Below are positions 1,735-30,469 of a DNA stretch of 64,000 nucleotides, in pieces; positions within the stretch are counted from its first letter, which is position 1, and the number at the start of each line of letters is the position of its first letter. The stretch is from Candidatus Margulisiibacteriota bacterium (lineage in GTDB: Bacteria > Margulisbacteria > WOR-1 > O2-12-FULL-45-9). Position numbers and translations under genes: made by a program. Under the pieces are notes generated by a model, which saw only the letters and a program-made list of their open reading frames with translations, was not told where the DNA came from and made no database searches. The stretch covers positions 782-64,781 of the forward strand of contig JAYEOW010000040.1 in NCBI GenBank assembly GCA_034723395.1. Reading direction: 5' to 3'.

Positions 1735-2688
1735 ATGAGAGTACGTTCTCAATCAATGTCGAGAAATAGATTATCGCTGGAGATGCGAAGATTTAGAGGT
1801 TGCATCCTGGGATCTGCAGCGGGAGACGCGCTGGGGGCGCCAGTTGAAGACATGACTCGTCGGCAAATAACCGGGCAATTTGGCAGGGTAACAAACTATG
1901 TTGATAATCCCCGGAAAAGTGTTCGGCCTGGGGAATGGACCGACGATACCGCCTTAACTTGGGCAACAATGAGTGCGATTGTCGATGGGGGAGAAGTTGA
2001 TGCTAAAAATATATCTTCGGCGATGAGGATGATGTTTGATTTGCATCCCGATCGCGGCTATGGCTTAACAACCAGAAGGGCTTTAAGCGGAGAGAAAGAT
2101 AGACACTTACGCCCCGCTAATGGGGCAGCCATGAGAATTGCCCCGGTAGCATTATTCTCTTGTTTGGATGTTGAAACAATGAGAACTCAGGTAATTGATA
2201 TAAGTCGGATTACACACAGACACCGCGATTCAATTGATGGGGCACTGGCAATTGCCTTTGCTATCGCTTCTGCGGCAAGAGCGGAATTGCAACCTAACAG
2301 GATTATCCTGGAGACGATTAGATTTCTTGGGGCAACAACAGAAATGAGTTATAAACTCCAAGAAGTGCAGGATTTATTAGATAATGAAGCGATCTCTACT
2401 GAGCAGGCTTTAGCGCATATTGGAACACGAAGGAATGTCCTAGAGTCGGTGGGGAGCGCTTTTTACGCATTCTTAAAATCCCCAGATGATTTTTATAGAT
2501 CTGTAACAGAAGCAGTTAATGCGGGAGGGGATACGGACACAATAGCCTCGTTAACAGGTGCTTTAAGCGGAGCCTATAACGGCCTAGAAGGGATTCCAAG
2601 GAAATGGGTGAATAACCTTGAGGCAAAACCAGCGATCGATGAATATTCACAAAGACTTTATGAGTCTGCTATGCTGCAAATTGCATAG
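1735..2688 (+). CDS. ADP-ribosylglycohydrolase family protein (DraG/ARH-like)
   Basis: GCILGSAAGDALGAPVE near the N-terminus and GGDTDTIASLTGALSGAY near the C-terminus, 317 aa. Confidence 0.75.
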   Translation: MRVRSQSMSRNRLSLEMRRFRGCILGSAAGDALGAPVEDMTRRQITGQFGRVTNYVDNPRKSVRPGEWTDDTALTWATMSAIVDGGEVDAKNISSAMRMMFDLHPDRGYGLTTRRALSGEKDRHLRPANGAAMRIAPVALFSCLDVETMRTQVIDISRITHRHRDSIDGALAIAFAIASAARAELQPNRIILETIRFLGATTEMSYKLQEVQDLLDNEAISTEQALAHIGTRRNVLESVGSAFYAFLKSPDDFYRSVTEAVNAGGDTDTIASLTGALSGAYNGLEGIPRKWVNNLEAKPAIDEYSQRLYESAMLQIA

Positions 2689-4183
2689 GATTTTCCCCGG
2701 AGTATCTAACCCGGATCCGACGATCGTTAAGGTTGAGTTCTTTTTCGATAAAAAATTCTATTCCGGTCTTTTCTATCCTTGCGTCTAATTCTGGATCGAG
2801 AATATCAAAAGCAATAACGTGGGTCGAGCGGTCTTGATATTCGGGATTAGCAATAAAAATTATATCGGCTGCTTCTTTAGGGCTTAATGATAAACCAGTT
2901 AGATATATCCCTTCTCTGACCTCACCGTTTTTGCTATGCGGTTGTGCATCTATTTGATTGTTTTGAGTTATTCTTGTGAAATTCTCAAGATTTGTATAGT
3001 GTTTGTAAAATCCAGGAATAGATTGTTCTTTTTCTTCCTTAGCGGCAATTTCTTCTATTCTATCAATAACCGATAAACCACCTAATCTTTTAACCATTAG
3101 CGGGGCAATCTCTCCATTTTCAGCTGATCGTAGAATATCTTTTAGGGCATTAATTTCGGCATTGCTAAGAAAGCTTTTCAATTTTATGTTTTTTATTCCG
3201 GCCCTTCTAAATGATCGGGCAATAAACCTCCCGTCATAATATTCAATCCCGCCAAATTCAGTTTGGTATTCCAAGGAGTCTTGTGAAAAAATTAATCTTA
3301 TTTCACGAGTATTATTCTGCTGTTGGATTAAAGTAACCAGTGAGGGAGTAAAGCGATTTAATCTTCGCATCTCATCGGTTAGTGGAGTTTGTGCCTCGCT
3401 TGCGTAATTAGTCATTGATATTTTATTTAGAGAAATTAGATGAGAATTATTTATTAATTGTAGAAAGAGCTCTGTTACACGGTTTAGTCCATTTCTTACT
3501 TTTTTTAGTCCGGGAATTGATCCGATATCTGCCTTAGCGATGACGGTGTGAATCAAAAAGAGCTGCTCAAGGGTTAGTGATTTGGGCATATACTTTTCAA
3601 AAACAGTTCTAATTTTAAAAAGACCTTCTGCGTTATTTGTTTTTCCGGAATAATAATCTTTTGACAAGTCACCTAAAAGGTCGTGGGACTTAATTAACAG
3701 CAGCGCAAAATCGAGCTCTTTGTCATTTAGTTCTCCGACCCCTGAAATAGACGGGTCCTTTAAAATATCCCGGGCAATCTTAGCTGATTTTTCTGGGTGG
3801 TTAGTATCGAAAGGGCCTTCTAATTTGCCAATATCGTGGTAAAGCATGGCGATCCTGATCAGTTCGATCAGCGACTTTTTAAATCCTGGAATTTTCGTTT
3901 TGTTGAGATGTTCGATGTCACCTGTATCTAGAAGCAGTAAGGCATTATAGGTGTGGCGCAGGGGATCAATCCCATCATGGGCATCATGTTGAGGTAAAAT
4001 TTCAAGATCTAGCAGTGGATTGCCAGCAGGGATCAAAAGTTTAAAATTCTTATATGAACCAAGAAGACGTTTAGAGATATTGTTCGATCTTAGTCCTAAT
4101 AATCCCTGCAGGCAAGCATTTGCCCGTTGTGACCTTCTTTGGGACCTTGATTGACAAAGTTTCGCTAATGGGCCGATACTCAT
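2669..4183 (-). CDS. HD-domain phosphohydrolase-like protein, function unknown
   Basis: LYHDIGKLEGP...HPEKSAKIARDIL is an HD motif. The likely ATG start is at 4183 (MSIGPLAK) with a GGAGG upstream. The gene converges on and overlaps the previous gene by about 20 nt. Confidence 0.55.
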   Translation of the reverse strand: MSIGPLAKLCQSRSQRRSQRANACLQGLLGLRSNNISKRLLGSYKNFKLLIPAGNPLLDLEILPQHDAHDGIDPLRHTYNALLLLDTGDIEHLNKTKIPGFKKSLIELIRIAMLYHDIGKLEGPFDTNHPEKSAKIARDILKDPSISGVGELNDKELDFALLLIKSHDLLGDLSKDYYSGKTNNAEGLFKIRTVFEKYMPKSLTLEQLFLIHTVIAKADIGSIPGLKKVRNGLNRVTELFLQLINNSHLISLNKISMTNYASEAQTPLTDEMRRLNRFTPSLVTLIQQQNNTREIRLIFSQDSLEYQTEFGGIEYYDGRFIARSFRRAGIKNIKLKSFLSNAEINALKDILRSAENGEIAPLMVKRLGGLSVIDRIEEIAAKEEKEQSIPGFYKHYTNLENFTRITQNNQIDAQPHSKNGEVREGIYLTGLSLSPKEAADIIFIANPEYQDRSTHVIAFDILDPELDARIEKTGIEFFIEKELNLNDRRIRVRYSGENPMQFAA

Positions 4184-4338
4184 GGTATTCTTTCGCCTCC
4201 TAATACATATCGACACTTTTTGCTCGAAATTTCACTTTTTTGGTACCTATTCAAGTATGAATACAACTCCACACTTCAGTATGGGGATTCATAGCACGCC
4301 TGAATAGTTATCTTTTTTGTGATAAAATATTAACCGCC

Positions 4339-5436
4339 ATGTGGTCTGAAGATGATATAAGGTTTATGCGTGAAGCGCACTCCCTGGCCGAATCTGCCGA
4401 AGGGAGAACAACTCCTGACCCGATGGTCGGGGCGGTTTTGGTCAAGGGTGGTCGCATTGTTTCTATGGGATATCACGGTGAAGTTACCACTCCCCACGCC
4501 GAAGCCTGGGCTATCCAAAAGGCCGAAAAAGAAGCGAAAGGGGCTACCCTTTATGTAAACCTTGAACCCTGTTCCCATTTTGGCAATAATCCTCCGTGCG
4601 CAAAACTGATTGCGGACGCCGGAATAAAAGAGGTCATCGTGTCGATGCGCGATCCAAATCCATTGGTGAGAGGGAAGGGATTCAGGATCCTTAAACGGGC
4701 AGGAGTTAAGGTTAGGGTCGGTCTGCTCGAGGAAGAGGCAAAACGTTTGAATGAAGTATTTATAAAATATATAACTACCAAAATGCCATTTGTCGCGATA
4801 AAAGCGGCGATGACTATCGATGGAAAGATAGCGACCAAGACCGGTGCCAGCCGTTGGGTGGCGGGAAAGGCCTCACGCCGTTATGCCCATCATATGCGCA
4901 ACAATTATGACGCGATCTTGGTCGGGCTCAATACGGTTTTGGTTGATAATCCGAAACTAACTGTAAGGTTGGTTAAGAAAATTAAAAATCCTATTAGGAT
5001 TGTTCTAGATGCTTATGCGAGGACACCGTTAAAGGCGGATGTTTTAGGTAATGGGGCGAGAACGATCATTATTGTTGGGCCTAGAGCTCCAAAGAAAAAG
5101 ATCGACGCCTTAAGAAAAAAAGGCGCAGAGATATTATCGATAAGAACAAAAAAAGCTAGGATCGACATGAAGGCCTTGATGAGGAAATTAGCAAAAATGC
5201 AGATCACCAGTGTTTTAGTCGAAGGTGGGGGAGAAGTGGTCGCCTCGGCGATTGAAGCGGGAGTTGCCGATAAAGCGTATTTTTTCCTTGCCCCCAAGAT
5301 CTTTGGCGGGAGAGATGCGAAGACAGGAGTGGAGGGGGAGGGAGTAAGATTTCCCTCACAGGCGGTTTGGTTAAGGAATGTTCATATAGAACACTTGGAA
5401 GAAAATATGCTGGTTACCGGATATCTTCAAAAATAG
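4339..5436 (+). CDS. ribD: bifunctional riboflavin biosynthesis deaminase/reductase
   Basis: The deaminase zinc motif HAEAWAI...LEPCSH is followed by a reductase domain, 365 aa. Confidence 0.9.
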   Translation: MWSEDDIRFMREAHSLAESAEGRTTPDPMVGAVLVKGGRIVSMGYHGEVTTPHAEAWAIQKAEKEAKGATLYVNLEPCSHFGNNPPCAKLIADAGIKEVIVSMRDPNPLVRGKGFRILKRAGVKVRVGLLEEEAKRLNEVFIKYITTKMPFVAIKAAMTIDGKIATKTGASRWVAGKASRRYAHHMRNNYDAILVGLNTVLVDNPKLTVRLVKKIKNPIRIVLDAYARTPLKADVLGNGARTIIIVGPRAPKKKIDALRKKGAEILSIRTKKARIDMKALMRKLAKMQITSVLVEGGGEVVASAIEAGVADKAYFFLAPKIFGGRDAKTGVEGEGVRFPSQAVWLRNVHIEHLEENMLVTGYLQK

Positions 5437-6812
5437 AGATCGCGCTCTCCTTTTTCGATCCTTTTTATTCGATTGACAACCTCATCGCGCAGTTTAGCGG
5501 ATTTCATCCCTTTAAGAGCATTATTAATTGCTTCTTCACCCTTTTTCTTTGTCTTTTCAGTTGCATAATCTTCCAGATATTCTTTTAAGGTAAGGATCGC
5601 GTTAGGTGTGCAGTAATTCTGGATAAACCCCGGCTTGGCCAGCTCCATAAAATGTTCGCCGGTCCGGCCCAGGCGGTAACAACCGGTGCAAAAGGACGGC
5701 GTGTAACCGCTTTCGCAAAGCTCGCGCATAACTTCATCCAAAGAGCGGGTATCGCCCAATTTAAACTGCTGCCGGTCGCTCTCTTGTTCTTCCAATTGTT
5801 CGGTGTAACCCTTGAGCTCTATCCGTGATCCCGCATCGATTTGAGAGCAGCCGAGCTCAATGACCTCTTTTCTGATTTTTGGGTTCTCTCTGGCGGTCAG
5901 GATCATCCCGGTGTAAGGGACGGCCAGGCGGATGATCGCGACAAGTTTTTTAAAATTGTCATCGCTTACAATATATTTATCGGATAAATTTACGTTCTGC
6001 GCCGGCTGGAGGCGTGGAAAAGAGATCGTATGCGGGCCGACATTGTATTTTTCTTCAAGATGGATAGCCTGGGAAAGAAGGCCCAAGACTTCAAACTTCC
6101 AATTGTATAGGCCAAAAAGAGCTCCGATTCCGACATCGTCGATCCCGGCCTCTTGAGCGCGGTCTAGCCCAAACAGGCGGTTGAGAAAATCTGCTTTCTT
6201 GCCGGAGGGGTGATATTTTTTATAGGTTTCCTGGTGATAGGTTTCCTGGAAGATCTGGTATGTGCCGATACCGACTTCTTTTAGCTTTTTATATCCTTCA
6301 ATCTCCATTGGGGCTGCGTTGATATTTACCCTCCGGATCTCCCCCCTGCCATTTTTTGTTGTGTAGGCGATCCTAACCGAATTAGCGATAAAATCGGCAT
6401 CATATTTAGGATGTTCACCAAAGACCAATATCAATCTTTTTTGCCCATTAGCCTCCAAGCTCTTTATCTCCCTTTTCAGCTCTTTGTCCAAAAGGGTCCG
6501 GCGTTTAACATCTTTATTTGAACAGCGGAAGGCGCAGTAGGCGCAATCATTTATACAGTCATTGCCGATATAAAGGGGAGCGAAGAGAACGATACGGTTT
6601 CCGTAAACTTTTTCTTTTAGTGTTTTTGCCCCTTTTAATATCTGGTTTAGTGTGTCGGTGTCAGTAACGTTCAGGAGGGCAGCGGTCTCTTCGAGAGAGA
6701 GCCTTTGTTTAGACAGGGATTTTTGGATAATATCTTTAACCTGCGATTTTTCAGGCCTGGTTTCTTTTAACAGGGTTTCAATCTTATTTTCGTCGATAAA
6801 TGATTTCATCAT
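5427..6812 (-). CDS. hydG: HydG-like radical SAM enzyme (ThiH/HydG family) with a C-terminal CxxC-x22-C domain
   Basis: N-terminal radical SAM motif CINDCAYC (Cx3Cx2C) in a LFAPLYIGNDC context. It is 461 aa (ThiH is about 370). The C-terminal CTGCYRLGRTGEHFMELAKPGFIQNYCTPNA matches the HydG auxiliary-cluster motif CxxCx22C. Confidence 0.7.
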   Translation of the reverse strand: MMKSFIDENKIETLLKETRPEKSQVKDIIQKSLSKQRLSLEETAALLNVTDTDTLNQILKGAKTLKEKVYGNRIVLFAPLYIGNDCINDCAYCAFRCSNKDVKRRTLLDKELKREIKSLEANGQKRLILVFGEHPKYDADFIANSVRIAYTTKNGRGEIRRVNINAAPMEIEGYKKLKEVGIGTYQIFQETYHQETYKKYHPSGKKADFLNRLFGLDRAQEAGIDDVGIGALFGLYNWKFEVLGLLSQAIHLEEKYNVGPHTISFPRLQPAQNVNLSDKYIVSDDNFKKLVAIIRLAVPYTGMILTARENPKIRKEVIELGCSQIDAGSRIELKGYTEQLEEQESDRQQFKLGDTRSLDEVMRELCESGYTPSFCTGCYRLGRTGEHFMELAKPGFIQNYCTPNAILTLKEYLEDYATEKTKKKGEEAINNALKGMKSAKLRDEVVNRIKRIEKGERDLYF

Positions 6813-8113
6813 CGGTTAACTCCCAGGTCGGTCGGGGCGCGCCCCATTCCCCGCAAAATAGCAAGAGTGGTCTCGATCTGCTGCTGGATCGATTCGGCAG
6901 CGTGCGCACGGTTGGGGTAGATCTCATAGTTCGGTTTAAATTTATCCGGGGTTACATTGAGCATTACCGAATTGGCTCCCGCCATCAAGCCTTGTTCCCG
7001 GGCCTTTTTATCCAAAGTCTCAAAACCGGTGGTGACCAGGATCTTTGCATTTTTAGCGTCGTTAAGCCGGGAGACAGCTAAAATCTTTAATACATTTTTG
7101 GTTGTCGGGGGAGGGGTATCTTTTAAAATACTTTCCGGATGAGGGATAAAGGGGCCGAAACTATACATTTCGGTGTGGAGCCTTTTGGCCAATAATATAT
7201 CGGCCAATAGATCTTCTTTGGTCTGTCCGGGAAGTCCGGCCAGCCCTCCGGTAATGATGAGGTAGCCCATTTTATAAGCGGCCTCGATGTGCTCGATGCG
7301 GGTGCGAAGGGTCCGTCCGGGGTGAAGTTGATTGTATAAGGATGGATTGCTGGTCTCAAAGCGCATCAGCAGTCCCCGCGCTCCGGCATCATATAGTTTT
7401 TGCAGGCCTGGGATGCCAACCTCGCCAAAGCTGATAAAGATCAAAACTGCGTGTTTTGATTTGACCGCTTTGATAATATCGGCCAGATCATCAACGGAAA
7501 AATAGTTATCTTCACCGCTCTGGAGGACCAACGCCTGGAAGCCGTGCTTTTCGACCGCGATATCGGCTGCTTCCAGGATCTCTTCCTTTGACATCCGGTA
7601 GCGATTTATACTCTTATTGGAATTTGCAATGCCGCAGTAATGGCATCCCTGCGAACAGTAATTAGATAATTCGATGATCCCGTGCACGCAGCAGGAATTG
7701 CTAAGGTGTTTTTGGCGAAGGAAGTTAGCCGATTTGTACAAAAGCTCGAGCTCTTTATCTTTTTCGAGGTTTAGCAGGTAGAGAAGTTCCGCATCCTTCA
7801 ACGGCAGGTCTTCCAATGCTTTGTCCAGGATAAGCGATAACTTTTTATCGGCTCCGCTCTTCTCAACATCAATGCGAGAGAGACGGAGGTCGAGCTCCTG
7901 CAGTTCAAAGAAGGTCTCTTTCCAGGTGGTGAGGATGGATATCGCTTCAGTTTGGGGGATGTTTTTTATTGCATAGCCCCCCTGGGCATAGATATAGTCG
8001 CCTACTTTAAGGTCGTCCAGCTCATTGATAGCCTGCTTGGTCTCTCCAAAATAGGTGAGGGTGATGATCTTCCCGTCGATTTTTTCGACCTTTCCCGGGA
8101 TGGCGTAACACAT
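6809..8113 (-). CDS. hydE: fusion protein: N-terminal HypC/HupF-like domain plus a HydE-like radical SAM (BioB family) domain
   Basis: The N-terminus MCYAIPGKVEKIDG...VGDYIYAQGGYAI matches the HypC signature (MC-AIP, VGDY..V..G.AI). It is followed by CSQGCHYCGIANSNKSINRYRMSKEEILEAA...LVLQSGED (Cx3Cx2C with a YCG..N...RYR HydE-type context). The 434-aa ORF is continuous and starts 4 nt after the stop of the HypA-like gene. Confidence 0.65.
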   Translation of the reverse strand: MCYAIPGKVEKIDGKIITLTYFGETKQAINELDDLKVGDYIYAQGGYAIKNIPQTEAISILTTWKETFFELQELDLRLSRIDVEKSGADKKLSLILDKALEDLPLKDAELLYLLNLEKDKELELLYKSANFLRQKHLSNSCCVHGIIELSNYCSQGCHYCGIANSNKSINRYRMSKEEILEAADIAVEKHGFQALVLQSGEDNYFSVDDLADIIKAVKSKHAVLIFISFGEVGIPGLQKLYDAGARGLLMRFETSNPSLYNQLHPGRTLRTRIEHIEAAYKMGYLIITGGLAGLPGQTKEDLLADILLAKRLHTEMYSFGPFIPHPESILKDTPPPTTKNVLKILAVSRLNDAKNAKILVTTGFETLDKKAREQGLMAGANSVMLNVTPDKFKPNYEIYPNRAHAAESIQQQIETTLAILRGMGRAPTDLGVNR

Positions 8114-8115
8114 AA

Positions 8116-8358
8116 TTATTCACAGTCGAAAGATACCAGTCTAAGCTCCCTGGCATCGCTATTTTCGATCTCAACTTCTGCTCCTTCGACAATCGTCCCT
8201 TTTGTCTTTTCCTTAAAAAAGTGAAGTAAGATCTCGGGATTGATTTCTGTATATTTGCCCATTTTTATATAGACCTTACATATCTTTTTGGCATTATTTT
8301 CCTCGCCACGTTTAATAATATCTCCCAAAAGATCTTTTAACAGGTGCATTTCATGCAT
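8116..8358 (-). CDS. hypA: HypA-like hydrogenase nickel-insertion protein, N-terminal domain only (no zinc finger)
   Basis: MHEMHLLKDLLGDI...GAEVEIENSDARELRLV parallels HypA through the EIEEVP region. The ORF stops after 80 aa with a single Cys. The two CxxC pairs of canonical HypA (about 113 aa) are absent. Confidence 0.5.
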   Translation of the reverse strand: MHEMHLLKDLLGDIIKRGEENNAKKICKVYIKMGKYTEINPEILLHFFKEKTKGTIVEGAEVEIENSDARELRLVSFDCE

Positions 8359-8810
8359 TTTAACAACTCCTCCGCGGCAACCTTAACCTCACCGCTCATT
8401 TTTTCTCCAAGTGCAATATTTTTGGATTGAACTCCAATAAATAAAACTTTCGATCCGGTGTCATCGGCAATGATCTTGCTGATAACTCTTAGCGGAAAGG
8501 CGTGAGTGCTTAAGGTGCTATCAGGGATCGCTTCTTCCGGGATTATTCTTACTTCTCCAGCCGCCCCTCCAAAATCGGCCGCGTCGATAATAACCGTTTT
8601 TGCCGGTTTATAATCAACCGCCTTATCAACAACATTTTCCGGTTTATCTCCCGCATCTAAGAGAAGATAGCCATTACCGGTTTGTTTGAATTTGCCAGCG
8701 ATATAAGGACCGAGTCCATCATCAGAGCGCAGGGAGTTTCCCACGGTGATGATGAGCGTAATTCCTGCTTTAGACGCTTTAAGGGCCTCTTTTACTTCAG
8801 AGGTTAACAA
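8337..8810 (-). CDS. hydrogenase maturation endopeptidase (HycI/HyaD/FrhD family)
   Basis: ITVGNSLRSDDGLGPYIA matches the GNxLxxDDGxG protease motif. It lies directly downstream of the large subunit and uses a non-ATG (TTG) start overlapping the large-subunit stop. Confidence 0.75.
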   Translation of the reverse strand: MLTSEVKEALKASKAGITLIITVGNSLRSDDGLGPYIAGKFKQTGNGYLLLDAGDKPENVVDKAVDYKPAKTVIIDAADFGGAAGEVRIIPEEAIPDSTLSTHAFPLRVISKIIADDTGSKVLFIGVQSKNIALGEKMSGEVKVAAEELLKCMKCTC

Positions 8811-10134
8811 ACTTCACGTCCAGGAAATGCGCGGAACAGGAGATACAGGGATCATAAGCCCTGACCAGCATCTCAAGGGCCAAGGTTATCTCTTCATCGC
8901 TTTTATCTAGAATTTCCGGTACCAGCTTTTTCATATCGTGTTCGATATTGTTAACATTTTGATTGGTGGGAATAACGCAATTGGCTTTTTGGATGATCCC
9001 TTTTTCGTCAACTTCGTAGTTGTGGAATAATATTCCACGCGGAACTTCTACGGCGCCAACGCCATTGCCGGGCTTGACCGGAATGGTCCCTTTTTCGTTT
9101 AATCCGACAATTACTGTCTCATCCCGATTGATCCCGTTTTTCTTAAGATCTTCCATGATCTGGATCGAATCTTCAAGCGAATGGACGCATTCGACCAGTT
9201 GGGCGGCGGTGTTTAAATATGGATTGATACATTTTGGTTTTAAGCCGACCGCATCGGCGACCGCCTTGGCCTTTGGATGTAGTTTACCGGCATTCAAGTT
9301 AAATCGAGCCAGGGCCCCGACCGCGTAAGAGTCGCGGCTCAGCTTGGCATGCTTTGCCGAAGAGTGGGGGACGACGAATTCATTGGTGATCTTCTTGTAA
9401 TCTTTTTTGTTCATCCTTACCCCGTCAGTCGATCCTACTTCCCCGCTAAGCATCGGATATTCGGCGTCGTCGCTTACCAGCCCGACATATTCGGTATCCC
9501 TTTCAAATTCGGGGAACTTTAAGGTTGCCGCAAGCTCAACCGTGGCTTCCATATCCGGGCGCATATTGTAAAGAATGTTCAGCATGGCGTCCAGATCTTT
9601 TTCTTTAGGAAGCTTGGTGAATCCCCCTACAATCGAGGAGATCGGGTGGACATGCCGGCCGACCAGGAGATCACAGACATCATTGCTGGCCTTTTTCATC
9701 CTAAGGGCGCGGCGGACAACTTTATTGTGCGTATCAATCAGCGGAACAAAGCTTTTTACCCCCAAAAGATCGGGAGCGACCAGTAAATATATATGCAGGA
9801 GGTGGCTGTCTAGGTTTTCCATGTGCAGCAGGAATTTTCGCAGCTTGATCGTCTGCTCCGACGGAGTAAAACCGATCGCATCTTCCGCCGCCTGGATGGA
9901 GGCCAAAGTGTGGCCGCAGGAGCATATCCCGCAGATCCGGCAAGTGATGTGCTGGGCCTCAAAGATCGAACGCCCCTGGAGCATCCCCTCAAAAAATCGG
10001 GGAGCTTCGACGATCTGCAGCTGGCAGGTCTTTAATTCACCGTTCTTAACGTCGACAACAATATTTCCGTGGCCTTCGACCCGGGTCAAATATTCAACAT
10101 TTACACATACATTTCTTTTACTCATGATTGTCAT
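8797..10134 (-). CDS. [NiFe] hydrogenase large (alpha) subunit, group 3 (cytoplasmic, cofactor-coupled)
   Basis: RVEGHG near the N-terminus, the RICGICSCGH (RxCGxC) N-terminal Ni ligand motif, and the C-terminal DPCISCSAH (DPCxxCxxH) motif followed by a 9-aa extension removed by the protease. 445 aa. Confidence 0.9.
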   Translation of the reverse strand: MTIMSKRNVCVNVEYLTRVEGHGNIVVDVKNGELKTCQLQIVEAPRFFEGMLQGRSIFEAQHITCRICGICSCGHTLASIQAAEDAIGFTPSEQTIKLRKFLLHMENLDSHLLHIYLLVAPDLLGVKSFVPLIDTHNKVVRRALRMKKASNDVCDLLVGRHVHPISSIVGGFTKLPKEKDLDAMLNILYNMRPDMEATVELAATLKFPEFERDTEYVGLVSDDAEYPMLSGEVGSTDGVRMNKKDYKKITNEFVVPHSSAKHAKLSRDSYAVGALARFNLNAGKLHPKAKAVADAVGLKPKCINPYLNTAAQLVECVHSLEDSIQIMEDLKKNGINRDETVIVGLNEKGTIPVKPGNGVGAVEVPRGILFHNYEVDEKGIIQKANCVIPTNQNVNNIEHDMKKLVPEILDKSDEEITLALEMLVRAYDPCISCSAHFLDVKFVNL

Positions 10135-10867
10135 TTTCCCTGCATTTGTTATACATATTCATCTTGTTTTTGATCAGGTCCATCGGGATTTTATATTTTT
10201 TGATCACATCGATCGCGCCATTTTCATTTGGATTGCTTACCATCCCCCGGCATCCATAGCAGATATTGCCATTATTAATACACCAGGAGTTGCAGCCGGC
10301 GCGCGTGATCGGCCCCAAACAGGTGATCCCCTTTTGGTAGAGGCAGACGTTTTCATTTAATTTGCATTCAACGCAGACCGAATAATCAGGGACATCATAA
10401 GGGAGGCCGGCGAGGGCGGCCTTTAGTACTTTAACAAATTCCGGGATATAGACCGGGCAGCCGTGTACCAGGTAATCAACTTTTACCACCTGGGGGACCG
10501 AGCGGGTCTCGATTGTTTCGAAAAATTTAGCGTCTTTTCCGTACACCTCTTTACGGATATCACCCAGTTTAAAATTATTCTTCATCCCGTTGACCCCGCC
10601 GATGGTAGCGCAGGAGCCGTAGGCGATTAGGACCTTTGATCTTTCGCGGATTTTCTTAATCCGTTCGATGGCATGCGGAGTAGTTATGCTTCCCTCGACA
10701 ACGGCCACATCAAAATCCTGGTCCCATTTTTCGCTCATTACTTCACGAAACTCAACCACGTCGATCGCACCTAAAACGTCAAGGAGCAGCTTTCCCATGT
10801 TGGCGACCTGCAGCTGGCATCCCTCGCAGCAGGCGAAATCAAAAAATGCTACTTTGGGTTTTCCCAT
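10118..10867 (-). CDS. [NiFe] hydrogenase small (delta) subunit, group 3b type
   Basis: MGKPKVAFFDFACCEGCQLQ is the typical start of sulfhydrogenase delta / MvhG-like small subunits, with multiple FeS cysteine clusters, 249 aa. Confidence 0.8.
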   Translation of the reverse strand: MGKPKVAFFDFACCEGCQLQVANMGKLLLDVLGAIDVVEFREVMSEKWDQDFDVAVVEGSITTPHAIERIKKIRERSKVLIAYGSCATIGGVNGMKNNFKLGDIRKEVYGKDAKFFETIETRSVPQVVKVDYLVHGCPVYIPEFVKVLKAALAGLPYDVPDYSVCVECKLNENVCLYQKGITCLGPITRAGCNSWCINNGNICYGCRGMVSNPNENGAIDVIKKYKIPMDLIKNKMNMYNKCRENDNHE

Positions 10868-10869
10868 CT

Positions 10870-11706
10870 TTATAAGGCCTCTTTTATATCTTTGATTTTA
10901 TCGTAGCTAAAAACCGGCCCGTCCTGGCAGCAATAAACATTGCCGATCTGGCAGTGTCCGCACTTGCCCAGGCCGCATTTCATATGGCGTTCAAGCGATA
11001 CCAGAATTTGTCGTTCCGGGATCTCTTTTTTGAGCAGTTCCGCTATCACGAACTTGTACATGACCGGAGGGCCGACAACAACGGCAAAGGTCCTTTCCGG
11101 TTCCAGGGTGATGCCGGGAATAAGAGACGTGATCAAGCCGACATTGCCTTTCCAGTCCGGGTCAGCCTGGTCGACAGTGCAGTTGAGTTTTACGTCCAAG
11201 CGCTTGTTCCAGTCGTCGACTTCATCATTGAAGAGCATATTCTGCGGGGTCTTGCAGCCCAGCAGTATGTCCACCTTGCCGAAATCCCGGCGGTTATCTA
11301 TCACATAATTGATAAGCGAGCGCAGCGGCACAAGTCCAAGCCCCGCCGCCACAAAAAGCAGGTCATTGCCTTCGAGGATCCTGACCGGGAAACCCTTGCC
11401 AAACGGGCCGCGAATGCCAACTTCATCACCAGCCTCCAGTTTATGCAGGGCGCCGGTAAATTTACCGGTATTTCTAACAACTAGCTCAAAAGAACCACGC
11501 TTAGTGGGGGAGGAGGAAACGGAGATAGGAGCTTCACCCACACCTAACAAAGAAACCTCAACGAACTGGCCTGGCTCATGGTCCAGGCTTTCGCCTCCAG
11601 GCAGCTCGATCTCAAAGTACTTTTCCGTCTCGGTCATCTGTTTGGTGCGCAGGACCTTGCTTTTTTTTATCTCGTATTCTGAGTCTTTCAGTTCAATCTG
11701 TTCCAT
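10870..11706 (-). CDS. hydrogenase gamma subunit: FAD/NAD(P)-binding oxidoreductase with a C-terminal [2Fe-2S] (PyrK-like)
   Basis: Ferredoxin-reductase-type fold (GPFG...; LLFVAAGLGLVP) with C-terminal CGLGKCGHCQIG...CC cysteines, 278 aa, in the beta-gamma-delta-alpha order. Confidence 0.75.
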   Translation of the reverse strand: MEQIELKDSEYEIKKSKVLRTKQMTETEKYFEIELPGGESLDHEPGQFVEVSLLGVGEAPISVSSSPTKRGSFELVVRNTGKFTGALHKLEAGDEVGIRGPFGKGFPVRILEGNDLLFVAAGLGLVPLRSLINYVIDNRRDFGKVDILLGCKTPQNMLFNDEVDDWNKRLDVKLNCTVDQADPDWKGNVGLITSLIPGITLEPERTFAVVVGPPVMYKFVIAELLKKEIPERQILVSLERHMKCGLGKCGHCQIGNVYCCQDGPVFSYDKIKDIKEAL

Positions 11707-11707
11707 T

Positions 11708-12769
11708 TTAACCTCTTCCTGCTTTGGTGTCTTTAATATCTTGTTCTTCGACCAGTTGGGTCAGCGTTTCTTTTAGGTTGATCTCAGCCATACAGGTCCG
11801 GCTGCAGCGGCCGCAGCCCGTGCAGAATAATCTTGAAAACTTTTCCATAGGGTATTTAAATTTTCTGTAATAGCGGTGGCGTTGACGGGCGGCGCGTTCT
11901 TCGCGAAAACTTTCGCCTCCAGCGACCTTGGCAAAGCCTTCGTTCTGGCAGGAATCCCAGCGTCGGTAGCGTTTACCAGTCTTCAGGTCGAGGTTTGGCT
12001 CATCGACTACGTCAAAGCAGTAGCAGGTAGGGCAGACATTAGTGCAGTTGCCGCAGGCCAAACATTTTTCACCCAGTTGTTCCCAGACCTTGCTGTTATA
12101 GCTTTTATCGAACATTTCCGGGATCTTTTCGTGGACGACCGGCACCTCGTTGGCAAAGATCTTTCTTTTCTCTTCCCTGAGCGCGTCCAAAGCTTTTAGG
12201 TCGGGTGGAGTGGCTTCAGCAAAAAGTTTGCTTTTCTCGATTATTGCGTCCCCGGCCTGAGTGTTAATATGGATAATATACTTGTCCCCGATATCGGTCA
12301 TAAAGAGGTCGTAACCGCCGTTTGGCGTATGGTTGTGTACCAGGCGGCAGCTGGCAAATTCATCGCAATAATCATTGCATTCATAGCCAACGATGGTGAT
12401 CTTGTTCTTGCGAATCAGATAGTTAATGTCTTTGGGGCGCTCAGAGAAAACCATATTCAAGCATTGGATGCCGGCCAGATCACAAGTATGGACGCCGAAC
12501 AGCACCATTTCTTCGCATTCCACCACCGGCTGCATATCTTGTCCTTTGCTGGTATCAAAGGTGGCCAGAGTCTCGAATTGCGGTATAAAATATTTCTTAG
12601 GCGGCAGGATGGTGGGGATGTGATCAATCGAGACCTGTTCGCCTGAGGTCACGTCTTCAAAAGCGAATTTATTGCTACCTTTGGCGACCGGGGCAACTAC
12701 CCGCTGTCCTTTGGCCAGTTCGGTGATGAACTTATCCAGGTCTGTTTTTTTTATCGTTACGTATTGCAT
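11708..12769 (-). CDS. hydrogenase beta subunit: 4Fe-4S protein (sulfite-reductase-subunit-A-like)
   Basis: CLACGNCTNVCPTCYC and CTGCGRCSRTC ferredoxin-like motifs. The likely ATG start is at 12769 (MQYVTIKK). The ORF-track start at 12787 is a TTG that lies inside the Rex box. Confidence 0.7.
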   Translation of the reverse strand: MQYVTIKKTDLDKFITELAKGQRVVAPVAKGSNKFAFEDVTSGEQVSIDHIPTILPPKKYFIPQFETLATFDTSKGQDMQPVVECEEMVLFGVHTCDLAGIQCLNMVFSERPKDINYLIRKNKITIVGYECNDYCDEFASCRLVHNHTPNGGYDLFMTDIGDKYIIHINTQAGDAIIEKSKLFAEATPPDLKALDALREEKRKIFANEVPVVHEKIPEMFDKSYNSKVWEQLGEKCLACGNCTNVCPTCYCFDVVDEPNLDLKTGKRYRRWDSCQNEGFAKVAGGESFREERAARQRHRYYRKFKYPMEKFSRLFCTGCGRCSRTCMAEINLKETLTQLVEEQDIKDTKAGRG

Positions 12770-12776
12770 AAAGGAT

Positions 12777-12794
12777 TTGTGAAACAAATCACAA
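12777..12794. promoter_or_regulatory. candidate Rex operator immediately upstream of the hydrogenase beta-subunit start
   Basis: TTGTGAAACAAATCACAA has one mismatch to the Rex consensus TTGTGAA-n4-TTCACAA. It lies 8 nt upstream of the ATG at 12769. Confidence 0.5.
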
Positions 12795-12810
12795 GCTCCG
12801 GTATACTACC

Positions 12811-12836
12811 CGAAAAAAAAGGGCTTGTCAAGCCCC
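12811..12836 (-). terminator. rho-independent terminator downstream of rex (read on the minus strand)
   Basis: The minus strand reads GGGGCTTGACAAGCCC followed by an eight-U run (plus-strand A8 at 12813-12820). Confidence 0.45.
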
Positions 12837-12869
12837 GAACCTAAATAACATATGGTCCGTGGCAGGAGA

Positions 12870-13487
12870 TTATTTAATAAAAAACGATAGGGTTTTAAGT
12901 TCCATGGCGAGATCAATATTATTTACCTTAACCTTCTTGGAAAGGGATAGTTTTACCGGAGCAAAATTTAAAATAGCTTTTATTCCGCATCCATCTAAAT
13001 GGCGGGCAGTTTCTTGGGCTGATTCGGTGGGAACGGTGAGGATGGCGATCTCGATCCCGTTGTTCCTGATCTGATCAGAGAGTGCTTTAATAGGATGACA
13101 GATAAAACCTTTAATTTTTCGTCCGATCTTCCTGGAATCATTATCAAATACTGCTATGATTTGGAAGCCAAGAGCTTGAAAACCCTTGTAGGCGGCGAGG
13201 GCAGAACCGAGATTTCCCATCCCGATAATACAGGCCTTCTTTTCATCTTCGATCCCGAGGATTTCGGCGATTTTGTTGCGCAGTCCAAGAACATCATAGC
13301 CGGACCCTCGTTTACCCAATTTACCAAAATAGGAGAGATCTTTTCTTACCTGCGAGTCACGTATCTCCATCAGGTCAGCCAGGCTTTTTGAGGAAATATT
13401 TTTGGTTCCCTGCTGGACAAGGAAATAGAGATAGCGGTAATAAAGCAATAGCCGTTGGATTGTCTTTTTTGGTATTTTTCTTTTCAT
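12870..13487 (-). CDS. rex: redox-sensing transcriptional repressor Rex
   Basis: N-terminal winged helix (IPKKTIQRLLLYYRYL) and a Rossmann NADH-binding domain with GMGNLGSALA, 205 aa. Confidence 0.85.
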   Translation of the reverse strand: MKRKIPKKTIQRLLLYYRYLYFLVQQGTKNISSKSLADLMEIRDSQVRKDLSYFGKLGKRGSGYDVLGLRNKIAEILGIEDEKKACIIGMGNLGSALAAYKGFQALGFQIIAVFDNDSRKIGRKIKGFICHPIKALSDQIRNNGIEIAILTVPTESAQETARHLDGCGIKAILNFAPVKLSLSKKVKVNNIDLAMELKTLSFFIK

Positions 13488-13490
13488 AGA

Positions 13491-13508
13491 ATGTGAATTA
13501 TTTCACAA
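13491..13508. promoter_or_regulatory. candidate Rex operator in the divergent rex / DUF1858-grx-fdx promoter region
   Basis: ATGTGAATTATTTCACAA is a near-perfect match to TTGTGAA-n4-TTCACAA. A TATAAT-like -10 follows at about 13516. Confidence 0.55.
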
Positions 13509-24986: not shown

Positions 24987-26387
24987 TTGAAGCGCCTTAA
25001 GGACTGGATGGTCGGAATTACAGCTGACGATCTTATTGAACAGATGAGCTGGGCGTGCAAAGCGGATTGTGTTTTTTGTTATCAGAAAGGGAGCCCCCCT
25101 TTTATGCGCGTGAAGATGCGCATGTCTAAGGAAGAGATCAAGACACGGCTTAAGTATTATAATGGGAAAAAGGGGCTTACATGGTGTACTCCTTATGAAA
25201 ATGACGAAGTGTTGAACAATCCATTCATTGAGAATGTGCTGAAGCAGATCCGGCGAAAAGACAAAGAGATGCTGCGGATCATTACTAATGGGGTCGCTCT
25301 TACGCCACAAATGATCGCCAAACTAAAAAAAGCTATGCCGCTATTCATTGACATATCGCTAAACAGCACAAATCCTGAGATACGCAGAAAATTGATGCGT
25401 GACTCATCCCCGGAAATCGCGATCCAGAGCATCCCCTTGCTTAGAAAGCACAAAATTCCTTTTGTAGTTAAGATCGTTGCTTGGCCGGGAGTCCCCTTTT
25501 CAGATATTGAAAAAACGATCAAGTATGCAGATAAATACGATGCTTTCCGCGTAGAAATTGGAAGCCCGGGAGTAACGCGTTACCTTCCGGATGTTTCTTT
25601 TGATTATAAGCGGCACTGGAAGAGGGTAGTTAAGTTTGTGAATTCAATAAAGCGGAAATATAACATACCTATTGTGTCTGATATTTATATTGATAAGAAT
25701 AATTATAGACGGTGGGATATTCCAGTTGTACAGGGAACCATAAAGCATTCACCGGCCTATACTCATGGAGTTAAGCCCGGAGACGTTATTGAAGAAGTGA
25801 ATGGACAGCTTGTGGATTCCCTTTTCGGGGTTTTTAGGGAATTGTTGAAGCGGCGGAAGGCGCGGTTAAAGATTCGCCGCGGCGGTAAAACTTTATTTTT
25901 TAACCTAAAAGAGAAAAAAAAGTATCCGTATCTATTTGACGGTCAAAGGATGCGGGGCCCTTTCGGGATAAGATTTAAATTAGCCAAAGAACTCATGCTT
26001 TCGGATGACGACATCATTGATATTAAGCGATTTGCTAACATTCATCGGGCGAAAAGAGTATTAGTTTTAACCTCGGCCAGGGCCTATTTCTTGATCAAAT
26101 ATAAGATGGAGAAGTTGAAACTTTTTAAAAGTAGTAATGCCCGGATAAAACTGGCGATCGCTGAAAATAAAATGTACGGCGGTAACACCAAGTGCGCGAA
26201 TTTACTGGTGGTAGATGATTATATTCATGCCGTGAAAAAGCACAAGAAGGAATTTAAGCCGGACCTGGTGGTTATTCCTTCGAGCCCCTTTAATGCCTGG
26301 GAGCGGGATGTGGTGGGGCGGGTGAACCTCGATATCGAGAGAGAGACAAAGGTCCCCGTAGAGTTTGTTTACAACGAAATACTCTAA
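24987..26387 (+). CDS. radical SAM - PDZ - DUF512 three-domain protein
   Basis: CKADCVFC is Cx3Cx2C. A PDZ-like stretch (GVKPGDVIEEVNGQLVDSLF) and a C-terminal block shared with the 26638-27219 protein (PDLVVIPSSPFNAWERDVVGRVNLDIERETKVPVEFVYNE) follow. The frame is open from 24722 with no ATG before 25008; an ATG at 24737 sits one frame off, just before an A9 run. Confidence 0.65.
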   Translation: MKRLKDWMVGITADDLIEQMSWACKADCVFCYQKGSPPFMRVKMRMSKEEIKTRLKYYNGKKGLTWCTPYENDEVLNNPFIENVLKQIRRKDKEMLRIITNGVALTPQMIAKLKKAMPLFIDISLNSTNPEIRRKLMRDSSPEIAIQSIPLLRKHKIPFVVKIVAWPGVPFSDIEKTIKYADKYDAFRVEIGSPGVTRYLPDVSFDYKRHWKRVVKFVNSIKRKYNIPIVSDIYIDKNNYRRWDIPVVQGTIKHSPAYTHGVKPGDVIEEVNGQLVDSLFGVFRELLKRRKARLKIRRGGKTLFFNLKEKKKYPYLFDGQRMRGPFGIRFKLAKELMLSDDDIIDIKRFANIHRAKRVLVLTSARAYFLIKYKMEKLKLFKSSNARIKLAIAENKMYGGNTKCANLLVVDDYIHAVKKHKKEFKPDLVVIPSSPFNAWERDVVGRVNLDIERETKVPVEFVYNEIL

Positions 26388-27352: not shown

Positions 27353-28357
27353 TTATTCAATAAAACACAAAGCGGAGCGATTTAAATTATTTGGAATTTT
27401 ATATGGATCCTTAAAAAGGACGCACTGGGCGTTATCTGGAGCAAAAAAGGTGTTGTGTAGTTCATAGGTCCTTTGCTTGCAGCCGCCAAGACATTTTTTA
27501 TTGGCTTTACAGTAGTGACATTCACTAATATTATTTGAGGTTGATCTTCTTATTTCTTTCATGACCGGATGGTTTTTAAATATTTTTGTAAAATTATCTT
27601 TTCTTATATTTCCCATAACCTTATTTCTCATCGGCATGCAGGGGACGATATCGCCGTTAAACAATATCGCGATAAATTCATAGCCAACGCCGCATGCGGT
27701 TCCCCTTGCTCTAGATGTTATATCTAATCCTTCCGGTTCGGATATTTTGTGCATACAATCTTTATAATCTTTTAGCTTGGGGTAGAGTTTTTTCCCCGCT
27801 TTTCCGCTGGGATTTATCAGGCTTATCCCGGCGGTAATATTGAAATGCTGGCAAAAATCGACAATATCCTGGATTTCTTTAACGTTATTTTTCATAACAA
27901 TTGTTCTGACCACAACGTTAAAGCCTTGTTTTTTACATAGTAAAATCGCGTCTATTGCTTTTTTAAACGAACCCTTTTTGCCTCTGATAGCATCATGTGT
28001 TTTAGCATTAGCTCCGTCGAGGCTAATTTGAATGGTATCGATGTTAATTTTTTTAAATCTTTCAATTGCCCGCTTATCAACTAGTGTGCCATTGGTCAAA
28101 AGATGGATTTGCAGCCCCTTCTGTGAAGCGTAGGCGGCAATTTTGTAAAAACGGGGATGTAAAAGAGGCTCTCCGCCGGATAAAATCACTTTTTTGGCCT
28201 TGTTCTTTGCTGTGGTGTCGAGAATATTAAATATTTCTTTTAAGGATAATTCTTTTGAAAATAAACTGCCATCCGCAAAGCAATGTATGCAATTTAAATT
28301 GCACCGTTTAGTTATTTCTAAATATAGCGAATCTAAATGCAAAAGATTATTGCTCAA
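27353..28357 (-). CDS. radical SAM/SPASM-domain peptide-modifying enzyme (anSME/PqqE/MftC-like)
   Basis: N-terminal CNLNCIHC (Cx3Cx2C) and a C-terminal SPASM cysteine cluster (CGVGYEF...CMP...CHYCKANKKCLGGCKQ), 334 aa. TTG start 28 nt after the stop of a 55-aa ORF. Confidence 0.8.
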   Translation of the reverse strand: MSNNLLHLDSLYLEITKRCNLNCIHCFADGSLFSKELSLKEIFNILDTTAKNKAKKVILSGGEPLLHPRFYKIAAYASQKGLQIHLLTNGTLVDKRAIERFKKINIDTIQISLDGANAKTHDAIRGKKGSFKKAIDAILLCKKQGFNVVVRTIVMKNNVKEIQDIVDFCQHFNITAGISLINPSGKAGKKLYPKLKDYKDCMHKISEPEGLDITSRARGTACGVGYEFIAILFNGDIVPCMPMRNKVMGNIRKDNFTKIFKNHPVMKEIRRSTSNNISECHYCKANKKCLGGCKQRTYELHNTFFAPDNAQCVLFKDPYKIPNNLNRSALCFIE

Positions 28358-30273: not shown

Positions 30274-30435
30274 ATGACTGAGCAAAACCCGCAAGAAAAA
30301 CTTCTAAACGATGTAAAACACTTCCTCGAGGTCTACAAAGTCCTTTCCCCCGATGGCAAAGCCCAATTCGAAGGCCAAATGGCCGGGTCGGTTTATGCTA
30401 TTAAAATGTTCATTGACAATGAAGACTATATATGA
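30274..30435 (+). CDS. small conserved-N-terminus protein, paralogue 2 (53 aa)
   Basis: My own translation gives MTEQNPQEKLLNDVKHFLEVYKVLSPDGKAQFEGQMAGSVYAIKMFIDNEDYI. The ORF-track entry 30353-31738 is a chimeric call in another frame. Confidence 0.5.
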   Translation: MTEQNPQEKLLNDVKHFLEVYKVLSPDGKAQFEGQMAGSVYAIKMFIDNEDYI

Positions 30436-30469
30436 TAAGTTTTCATTAGCAGTGAATGGAGGTGGATTT

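Follow-up and report, generated by a model that had tools for sequence, protein, structure and literature searches.

A HydG tyrosine lyase and a HypC-fused HydE paralogue encoded with [NiFe] hydrogenases point to a candidate hybrid maturation route

Introduction

We analysed a 64,000-nucleotide stretch of DNA (hereafter the window) from a Candidatus Margulisiibacteriota metagenome-assembled genome (MAG; assembly GCA_034723395.1, contig JAYEOW010000040.1, positions 782 to 64,781), in which nine tightly packed genes on the minus strand, running from 13508 to 5427, bring together a [NiFe] hydrogenase and a HydG-type tyrosine lyase. Searches of the open reading frames (ORFs) with Pfam and NCBIfam profiles gave, in the order of that strand, a Rex box, rex, a promoter with a second Rex box, the beta, gamma, delta and alpha hydrogenase subunits, a HycI-type protease, a HypA-like protein, a fusion of HypC with a radical S-adenosylmethionine (SAM) domain, and HydG. 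The region is probably one Rex-repressed operon for a cytoplasmic group-3b [NiFe] hydrogenase and its own maturation set, in which the fusion and HydG would form a module that builds and delivers the Fe-CO/CN unit of the active site.

By the textbook view, [NiFe] and [FeFe] hydrogenases have no relation to each other, either as enzymes or in the machineries that mature them. To our knowledge, HydG is the only enzyme that makes both CO and CN on iron, and we know of HydG and HydE-like proteins only from [FeFe] hydrogenases. A 2025 review of [NiFe] cofactor assembly holds six Hyp proteins to be necessary and calls the anaerobic source of CO the most pressing open question, mentioning neither HydG nor radical SAM (PMC12134894). 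In cultured genomes, phylogenetic profiling showed a near-perfect co-occurrence of HydE, HydF and HydG, both among themselves and with [FeFe] hydrogenases (PMC3226654). We found no report in the open-access full-text literature of a link between HydG or HydE-like proteins and [NiFe] maturation, or of a HypC-radical-SAM fusion. The component families described here are known; their wiring to a [NiFe] hydrogenase, a HydE paralogue with its own pocket and a truncated HypA appear to be new.

The HypC-HydE paralogue fusion

The fusion gene (6809..8113, minus strand) encodes 434 amino acids (aa), namely a HypC domain (about residues 1-75), a conserved helical linker and a radical-SAM TIM barrel (about 98-434) with the motif CSQGCHYC; NSCCVHG is the signature of the subfamily. 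The HypC family profile PF01455 matches residues 1-64 with 41.3 bits (cut-off 28.5), and the narrower HypC model TIGR00074 gives 33.8 bits, under its cut-off of 48. The N-terminal MCYAIPG shows no variation among 21 aligned fusions, and among 117 fusions M1, C2, Y3, I5, P6 and G7 never vary. At the position of His51 in E. coli HypC, the fusions have an invariant Gln44. In the loci that we examined, the domain never occurs unfused, and thus differs from the free-standing form of about 80-100 aa that pairs with HypD.

The radical-SAM half comes close to HydE. It reaches 239.9 bits on the HydE equivalog TIGR03956, narrowly missing the cut-off of 254.6, versus 69 bits on the HmdB model TIGR03957, and we found no dedicated NCBIfam model for the HypC-HydE-like architecture. 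The closest solved structure is Thermotoga maritima HydE (E = 1.5e-57; PylB, 6e-26). An AlphaFold2 model of the fusion (predicted local distance difference test score 91.4, predicted template modelling score 0.90) superposes on this structure with a TM-score of 0.94-0.96 and a root-mean-square deviation of 1.5-1.6 Å. In a neighbour-joining tree of 33 canonical HydEs (T. maritima HydE included) and 31 fusions, with E. coli BioB as the single outgroup, the canonical HydEs form a clade with 87% bootstrap support that contains none of the fusions; owing to the single outgroup, the position of the root is weakly resolved. Identity is 36% between the two groups and 61% within each. Canonical unfused HydEs also occur beside the fusion in two related loci, L028 and L060, where they score 330.7 and 359.6 bits on TIGR03956 and share 34-35% identity with the radical-SAM domain of the fusion from the same locus.

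Residues of the HydE pocket, with roles in substrate handling taken from PMC11826987, were mapped onto 200 fusions and 121 canonical HydEs. All 200 fusions have His for R54 and Cys-Cys for V51-H52; T134 is replaced by Phe or Cys, R155 by Gly or Ala and, in 181 fusions, K309 by Arg. The auxiliary-cluster cysteines Cys311, 319 and 322 are lost. Canonical HydEs keep R54, T134, R155, T269 and K309 in 119-121 of 121 sequences. C63, C67 and C70 of the SAM motif and the Fe(I)-binding pair M224 and M291 are present in every fusion, and M224, M291, V105, L157 and T269 are conserved in 195-200 of the 200; canonical HydEs retain all of these residues too. A C52-x-H54 motif ('C[VIL]HG') is invariant across divergent representatives of the fusion; its counterpart in HydE is H52-x-R54. 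We assign the radical-SAM half to a distinct HydE paralogue, HydE-prime, with a remodelled active site, and not to HydE itself. A fusion of a HypC-like domain with HydE had been proposed from the window alone; the fusion and its HypC-like part stand, and the HydE identity does not, given the sub-cut-off score, the separate sister clade and the changed pocket. One 352-aa protein, P0265, carries the C-x-H signature of the paralogue without a HypC domain and represents an unfused member.

HydG and the triple fusions

The stop codon of the fusion and the start of the HydG gene (5427..6812, minus strand) share an ATGA. The product passes the HydG equivalog TIGR03955 comfortably (511 bits, cut-off 312.15), falls under the cut-off of the ThiH model (292.8 against 380 bits) and can be aligned over the full length with Thermoanaerobacter italicus HydG, whose structure is solved (4WCX, E = 4.8e-155). 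Both cysteine motifs are present, CINDCAYC (CX3CX2C) and a C-terminal CTGC-x22-C, the latter absent from E. coli ThiH. In a tree of 40 HydGs from the loci described below, the fused copy of locus L033, two solved HydGs and a ThiH outgroup, the solved enzymes nest among the locus HydGs. A HydG-like enzyme with a CxxCx22C tail had been predicted, and this assignment is secure: the equivalog cut-off is passed, the tail can be read in the translation and ThiH is excluded as a better fit. Of the two radical-SAM proteins, HydG hence falls where the original prediction had placed it, among the HydGs and apart from ThiH, whereas the fusion domain lies outside the canonical HydE clade.

A [NiFe]-specific HydG subfamily was considered and rejected, as HydGs next to the fusion and HydGs next to [FeFe] hydA mix in clades with 100% support and the solved HydGs nest among them. 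Separately, a clade of 16 HydGs (100% support) carries a C-TAGYR-C-GRTGE-C-x17-C motif at the C-terminus in place of CX2CX22C, which suggests a differently ligated auxiliary cluster. It comprises the enzymes of L033, L060 (597-2114), L077, L045, L075 and 11 more loci, and includes a HydG that adjoins HydF and a canonical HydE.

A profile-free search of 1.8 billion cluster representatives recovered two proteins, P0242 (906 aa) and P0249 (881 aa), that combine in a single chain a HypC domain (1-75), the HydE-like domain (about 100-400) and a full HydG, the last scoring 607 and 631 bits on TIGR03955, respectively. P0242 has one and the same sequence in an NCBI MAG and in two Logan assemblies from separate read sets, and its gene immediately follows a 3b-type operon (beta-gamma-delta-alpha-protease). 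P0249 lies on two contigs, flanked by 3b-type subunit genes with an 84-aa HypA nearby, and is likewise identical across independent assemblies. Neither annotated locus contains hydA. Triple fusions beside [NiFe] genes hence occur in at least two independent lineages. A third candidate, from locus L033 on a complete Omnitrophota chromosome, was not counted because of an A8 homopolymer at the junction, where an error of one nucleotide (nt) would restore a stop codon. The same search space also holds P0272 (803 aa), a fusion of canonical HydE and HydG without a HypC domain (TIGR03956, 394 bits; TIGR03955, 531 bits).

The altered pocket raises the question of whether HydE-prime might perform an unrelated radical-SAM modification, of the large subunit or of another cofactor, with HypC as a docking domain and the adjacency of HydG reflecting a shared need for SAM and Fe-S clusters. 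The substitutions R54H, T134F/C, R155G/A and K309R would fit such a change of product, as would the Gln in place of HypC His51 and the lack of a nearby HydG in almost half of the loci. We nevertheless regard it as very improbable: M224 and M291, which hold the Fe(I) carbonyl-cyanide species in HydE, are retained almost without exception together with V105, L157 and T269, the fold is that of HydE by its TM-score, and HydG has become covalently joined to HydE-prime in independent lineages.

Conservation of the module across species

A protein collection contains more than 120 close relatives of the fusion, almost all of which have both of its Pfam domains. Among genomes sampled at one per species, tblastn confirmed at least 346 matches to the fusion; this is a lower bound, since the scan used two clade-specific peptide patterns. 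Fusion-bearing taxa include Margulisiibacteriota, Saganbacteria, Omnitrophota and Brevinematales. Gene neighbourhoods were compared in the window and the best 80 of the 346 matches (81 loci, 1.40 Mb), with flanks of up to 10 kb onto which the nine proteins of the window were mapped. These loci comprise 36 records from Omnitrophota, nine from Margulisiibacteriota, eight from Spirochaetota (including Brevinematales), seven from Saganbacteria/WOR-1, six from Planctomycetes-labelled MAGs, one each from Atribacterota, Riflebacteria and Falkowbacteria, and 12 without a phylum-level label.

The maturation genes travel with the fusion. The protease gene precedes it by no more than 600 nt in 57 of the 76 loci whose flanks are long enough, and an orthologue of the 80-aa mini-HypA of the window lies within 400 nt in 42 of 81. 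HydG is present in 43 of the 81 loci and within 1 kb of the fusion in 31 of the 69 with enough flank; where nearby, it adjoins the fusion directly or with only rex in between. Three types of [NiFe] hydrogenase accompany the module. About 45 loci have a 3b enzyme, while about 17 (e.g. L055, L073 and L077) have a membrane-bound Mrp/Mbh-type group 4 enzyme instead, with NuoH-, NuoB- and NuoC-like, MnhB, MnhE and MbhD/E subunits followed by the protease, mini-HypA, the fusion, in some cases rex, and HydG. L075 encodes a Tat-exported group-1-like enzyme whose small subunit bears NiFe_hyd_SSU_C, in the order fusion, HydG, small subunit, large subunit, protease, TatA, TatC, a His-rich membrane protein, full-length HypA and HypB. 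The gene order is HypA-HypB-fusion with a divergent HydG in L014, and HycI-HypA-HypB-fusion in L089. L014, L075 and L089 are hyp-operon layouts in which the fusion and HydG occupy the C-D-E(-F) positions. Conservation of the neighbourhood had been named as a check on the original prediction, and the module recurs in hundreds of species with three types of [NiFe] hydrogenase, which argues that the arrangement is not incidental.

Two further features of these neighbourhoods are worth recording. A membrane protein of about 240 aa stands beside the hydrogenase operons of L011 (4544-5257), L028 (4560-5273), L051 (7415-8128), L056 (4481-5188) and L075 (18053-18814). It has a His-rich loop, HTHTHTHPDGTTHLHKHTHNKEHSHIH, and would most probably transport nickel; Pfam searches of two members gave no match. 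The L075 member would be nickel-transporter-like by its HTHTHTH...HSHIH loop. L091 has a NicO-family gene in its place. In a group of Margulisiibacteriota and Saganbacteria loci (L022:13208-20696 and L043:11328-18934; also L041, L044 and L057), a group-4 hydrogenase lies downstream of the fusion and is combined with AsrA/AsrB-like subunits, a molybdopterin oxidoreductase and proteins of the Fer4_11 and TPR types; HydG is absent from the surrounding 10 kb. This cluster matches the unusual Mbh-type cluster described for Saganbacteria (PMC6349859).

Hyp and Hyd partner genes

The absence of HydF, HydA and HypBDEF from view had been noted for the locus, and it extends over the entire 64 kb of the window. 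No match was found there by tblastn to HypB, HypD, HypE or HypF (with E. coli HypA-F as queries) or to HydA or HydF (with Omnitrophota queries), H-cluster and HydF motifs were not found, and Pfam searches of 30 further ORFs gave nothing related to hydrogenases. Across the 1.40 Mb of the window and 80 loci, E. coli HypD, HypE and HypF gave zero tblastn matches at E < 1e-3, an absence that covers about 10 kb around the module. The Pfam families of these three proteins are likewise absent from ten further annotated loci (L084-L093). No free HypC was found in the 1.40 Mb, every HypC-like match being the N-terminus of a fusion, and HypB was matched only in L014, L075 and L080. HypA, HypB and nickel-transporter-like genes accompany the module in some loci.

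Such an absence near the module would also be expected if HypD, HypE and HypF were encoded elsewhere and supplied cyanide, with the module adding CO or pre-carbonylated iron, or serving as a HypC paralogue dedicated to one hydrogenase and endowed with an extra catalytic step. The source of CO in anaerobes is open in the canonical pathway (PMC12134894), and a supplementary module would be one answer to it. Paralogues of HypC that serve a single enzyme are familiar, HybG and HupF among them, and the MC(x)(A)(I)P N-terminus is retained in the fusion; the HypDEF absence, moreover, was established within about 10 kb of the module. We consider a supplementary role rather unlikely, all the same. The L075, L014 and L089 operons assemble protease, HypA, HypB, Tat or nickel-transporter-like genes and still lack HypD, HypE and HypF; a separate cyanide route would be redundant because HydG makes CN as well as CO; and no locus offers a free HypC or a HypD partner. 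Published neighbourhood counts (PMC12727194) were considered as a baseline for the presence of HypDEF beside [NiFe] hydrogenases and rejected, since several hyp genes had served as search queries when that data set was built.

Genes of the [FeFe] system do occur near some relatives of the fusion. In eight loci, seven of them Omnitrophota-labelled (L024, L025, L028, L046, L051, L053, L074 and L079), a group-A [FeFe] hydA with NuoE/F-like subunits lies downstream of the fusion, at a distance of 3-7 kb. A full-length HydG stands beside this cluster in L024, L025, L028 and L074, and a partial copy in L079. The canonical HydE of L028 is beside the [FeFe] hydA, and that of L060 is accompanied by HydF. 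The claim that HydE- and HydG-type genes occur here without [FeFe] genes therefore holds for the window and fails as a general rule among its relatives. In L023, an 85-aa ORF directly after HydG (12757-13014) resembles only the C-terminal piece of HydF (48% identity over 79 aa, with CWGC), has no GTPase domain and could be a HydF remnant or a mini-HydF.

Given such loci, one may ask whether the true target of HydG and the HydE-like protein is an [FeFe] hydrogenase from another part of the genome, with only the Rex regulon and the neighbourhood in common with the [NiFe] operon. HydG is canonical by every feature tested, it stands beside the [FeFe] cluster in some of the eight loci with hydA a few kb downstream of the fusion, HydE, HydF and HydG are tightly linked to [FeFe] enzymes in cultured genomes (PMC3226654), and Riflemargulisbacteria are reported to have an [FeFe] hydrogenase. 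An incidental linkage is nonetheless improbable in our view. The HypC domain with its invariant Cys2 is covalently attached, and HypC acts on [NiFe] large subunits; the fusion directly follows the [NiFe] protease and HypA in most loci, with three [NiFe] types; and the triple fusions adjoin [NiFe] genes in loci without hydA. The sole two full-length canonical HydE genes that we saw share their loci with the fusion (L028 and L060). Finally, Saganbacteria encode the fusion and HydG beside a 3b hydrogenase (L002, L006 and L010), yet are reported to be without [FeFe] hydrogenase (PMC6349859). That study never mentions the HydE or HydG maturases, and no usable hyp, hydE or hydG calls were found in it or its supplementary files, where the sole 'HydG' is an unrelated NtrC-type regulator. 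In organisms with both classes of hydrogenase, a single HydG may be shared, its partners being canonical HydE (and HydF) in [FeFe] maturation and the HypC-fused paralogue in [NiFe] maturation.

Proposed maturation route

The simplest account, and the one that we favour, is that HydG and the HypC-HydE-prime fusion make and deliver the Fe-CO/CN unit of [NiFe] large subunits, replacing HypCDEF or acting alongside them. We infer the following sequence of steps. HydG would cleave tyrosine by radical-SAM chemistry and, as in [FeFe] maturation, build Fe-bound CO and CN on the auxiliary cluster at its C-terminus. The resulting Fe(CO)x(CN)y-cysteine synthon would enter the barrel of HydE-prime and be processed there, in a pocket that keeps the SAM cluster and the two Fe(I)-holding methionines, has replaced the cyanide-contacting Arg54, Thr134 and Arg155, has gained Cys52-x-His54 and has lost the auxiliary-cluster cysteines. 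The iron unit would then travel on Cys2 of the tethered HypC domain to the large subunit, nickel would be inserted by mini-HypA, together with HypB in loci that have it, and the HycI-type protease would trim the C-terminus of the large subunit. The original prediction had suggested a hybrid route in which HydG supplies ligands to a HypC-like scaffold. The coupling is backed by conservation, by the three [NiFe] types, by the triple fusions and by the lack of HypDEF nearby; the part that fell away is the identification of the partner as HydE.

A bolder version of this account is a complete [NiFe] pathway independent of HypD, HypE and HypF, in which one CO and two CN would all derive from tyrosine via HydG, the HydE paralogue would replace HypD as the iron-processing scaffold through its new Cys-x-His site, and the fused HypC would insert Fe(CN)2(CO). 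We hold this to be possible, on the tentative side.

Several observations weigh against a HydG-fed route. The known product of HydG is Fe(CO)2(CN), while the [NiFe] site needs Fe(CO)(CN)2, so that the ligand stoichiometry does not match (CO:CN of 2:1 against 1:2). Because both methionines implicated in Fe(I) dimerisation in HydE are retained, the sequence does not imply a mono-iron product, and with an invariant Gln for His51 the HypC domain of the fusion may lack the iron-binding mode of HypC. In 38 of the 81 loci, the retrieved flanks contain no HydG. Fusion-adjacent HydGs share 100%-supported clades with HydGs found beside [FeFe] hydA, TM1266 and canonical HydE, and so could primarily serve [FeFe] enzymes where these exist. 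[FeFe] hydrogenases do lie close to the fusion in the eight loci described above, and Riflemargulisbacteria, relatives of the source MAG, are reported to have one (PMC6349859).

The hydrogenase operon and its regulation

The first gene of the operon, rex (12870..13487, minus strand), encodes a redox-sensing (NADH/NAD+) transcriptional repressor (NF003995, 253 bits, cut-off 126; Pfam Put_DNA-bind_N and CoA_binding). Rex box 1 (13491..13508, minus strand) reads TTGTGAAATAATTCACAT on that strand and overlaps the -10 element of a promoter-like site for rex (TTGACA-17-AATAAT, 13525-13497, minus strand, score 11/12). A second promoter-like site precedes the hydrogenase genes (TTGACA-17-TAGTAT at 12831-12803) and is followed by Rex box 2 (12794-12777, TTGTGATTTGTTTCACAA), the pair spanning 12777..12831 on the minus strand. 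Each box differs by one mismatch from the Rex motif TTGTGAAnnnnTTCACAA; they are the sole sites in the 64 kb with at most one mismatch, the remaining three matches having three mismatches each. Each also adjoins one of the two best sigma-70-like promoter matches of the strand, so a Rex protein and operator matches at both promoter-like sites occur together, as in a Rex regulon. Rex box 2 overlaps the mechanically called TTG start of the beta ORF, for which the ATG at 12769 would therefore be a likelier start. Neighbouring genes overlap or abut, as in the ATGA common to the fusion and HydG, which is consistent with a single transcription unit. A Rex-controlled locus with this gene order and strand had been predicted, and is borne out by the ORFs, the Pfam and NCBIfam matches and the two one-mismatch boxes.

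The hydrogenase genes, all on the minus strand, follow in the order beta, gamma, delta, alpha. The beta subunit (11708..12787) is HydB/ShyB-like with a Fer4_22 domain and is related to AsrA (NF040829, 240 bits; PF17179, 107 bits). The gamma subunit (10870..11706) is an AsrB-like FAD/NAD(P)-binding, [2Fe-2S] protein (NF006220, 276 bits; FAD_binding_6, NAD_binding_1 and DHODB_Fe-S_bind). The [NiFe] small subunit, delta, lies at 10118..10867 (PF01058, 88.9 bits; NF040831 and NF040836, about 170 bits), and the [NiFe] large subunit, alpha, at 8797..10134 (PF00374, 119 bits), with sulfhydrogenase alpha subunits as its top NCBIfam matches. Its translation contains RICGIC...H near the N-terminus and DPCISCSAH followed by a nine-residue C-terminal extension for the protease. 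The assignment to group 3b rests on the subunit order and families, which match Pyrococcus HydBGDA/ShyBCDA, on the family profiles, and on the N- and C-terminal Cys pairs of the large subunit. All Pyrococcus sulfhydrogenase equivalog cut-offs were missed, even by the top NCBIfam matches (e.g. 274 against 880 bits), which suggests a distant member of the group.

Two maturation genes complete the set. The HycI-type C-terminal maturation endopeptidase (8337..8810, minus strand) scores 99.8 bits on TIGR00072 (cut-off 47.45) and 116.8 on TIGR00142 (119.1). The mini-HypA (8116..8358, minus strand) is an 80-aa protein starting with MHE that matches PF01155 with 49 bits over profile positions 1-69 of 112. 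It aligns to residues 1-69 of the 116 of E. coli HypA, i.e. only the nickel-binding N-terminal domain, the zinc Cys domain being absent; since it ends before the zinc cysteines and misses the TIGR00100 cut-off (44.7 against 88.1 bits), we describe it as a truncated HypA-like protein. The sulfhydrogenase-type subunits, the C-terminal protease and the HypA-like gene were all found where they had been predicted.

Other genes in the window

A 515-aa ORF on the minus strand (2669-4216) has no Pfam match and is kept near the operon in related loci (cluster c70, L001 and L010). Two further radical-SAM genes, unrelated to the operon, lie at 24987-26387 and 27353-28357, one with a PDZ and one with a SPASM domain. 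The segment 28855-30245 carries an AbiEii-type nucleotidyltransferase toxin gene and an overlapping 197-aa ORF without family match, a possible type IV toxin-antitoxin pair, and is followed by an AAA_14/DUF4143 ATPase gene (30353-31738). Two tandem overlapping genes of about 700 aa (52679-54778 and 54775-56871) both match anaerobic ribonucleotide reductase NrdD (484 and 442 bits), which identifies them by sequence as a duplicated glycyl-radical enzyme pair.

Significance

Coupling of HydG to HypC beside [NiFe] hydrogenases provides a concrete, testable answer to the question of the ligand source in a large group of anaerobes. If correct, it would establish a new HydE-like subfamily with a distinct pocket. 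In the bolder, HypDEF-independent form, it would amount to a third system of hydrogenase maturation, a hybrid one found widely among uncultured anaerobes, and would show the biosynthesis of the [NiFe] and [FeFe] cofactors to be evolutionarily interchangeable. For metagenome annotation, the presence of HydE and HydG would no longer imply an [FeFe] hydrogenase, nor would a [NiFe] enzyme have to be regarded as dead for want of HypDEF. Heterologous production of [NiFe] hydrogenases might also gain a compact maturation cassette of three genes or even one.

Comparison with known systems

Four known systems invite comparison. The first is the HydE/HydF/HydG machinery of the [FeFe] H-cluster, of which the HydG of the window is a bona fide member by its cut-off, its alignment to 4WCX and its two Cys motifs. 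The fusion shares with HydE the fold, the SAM motif and M224/M291, the two methionines to which Fe(I)(CO)2(CN) intermediates bind, and adjacency of HydE and HydG, even as a fusion (P0272), occurs in the canonical system too. Here, however, no HydF or HydA is in view, the partner is a [NiFe] enzyme, and the HydE-like domain is fused to HypC and paralogous, with C52-x-H54 in its pocket where HydE has H52-x-R54 and without the auxiliary-cluster cysteines.

The second is the HypA-F pathway of [NiFe] hydrogenases, in which HypCD is the scaffold and HypEF make cyanide from carbamoyl phosphate. The target is the same, and a HypC-type domain with the essential Cys, a HypA-type chaperone and a C-terminal endopeptidase are common to both, as are HypB and nickel-transporter-like genes in some related loci. 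The differences are that HypD, HypE and HypF were not found near the module in the 1.4 Mb, that HypC is fused and has Gln for His51, that HypA lacks the zinc domain, and that two radical-SAM enzymes fill the operon position usual for hypC-D-E.

HypX, which provides CO from N10-formyl-tetrahydrofolate under aerobic conditions, is likewise an accessory route to a diatomic ligand outside the six core Hyp proteins. Its protein family and chemistry are unrelated, and it works with HypCD under oxic conditions, whereas the module described here is of radical-SAM type and occurs in lineages of strict-anaerobe type. Finally, HcgA and HmdB of the [Fe]-hydrogenase Hmd set a precedent for the recruitment of the BioB/HydE family to another class of hydrogenase. 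The fusion scores low on the HmdB model, no hmd or hcg genes are present here, and the hosts of the module are bacteria, not methanogens.

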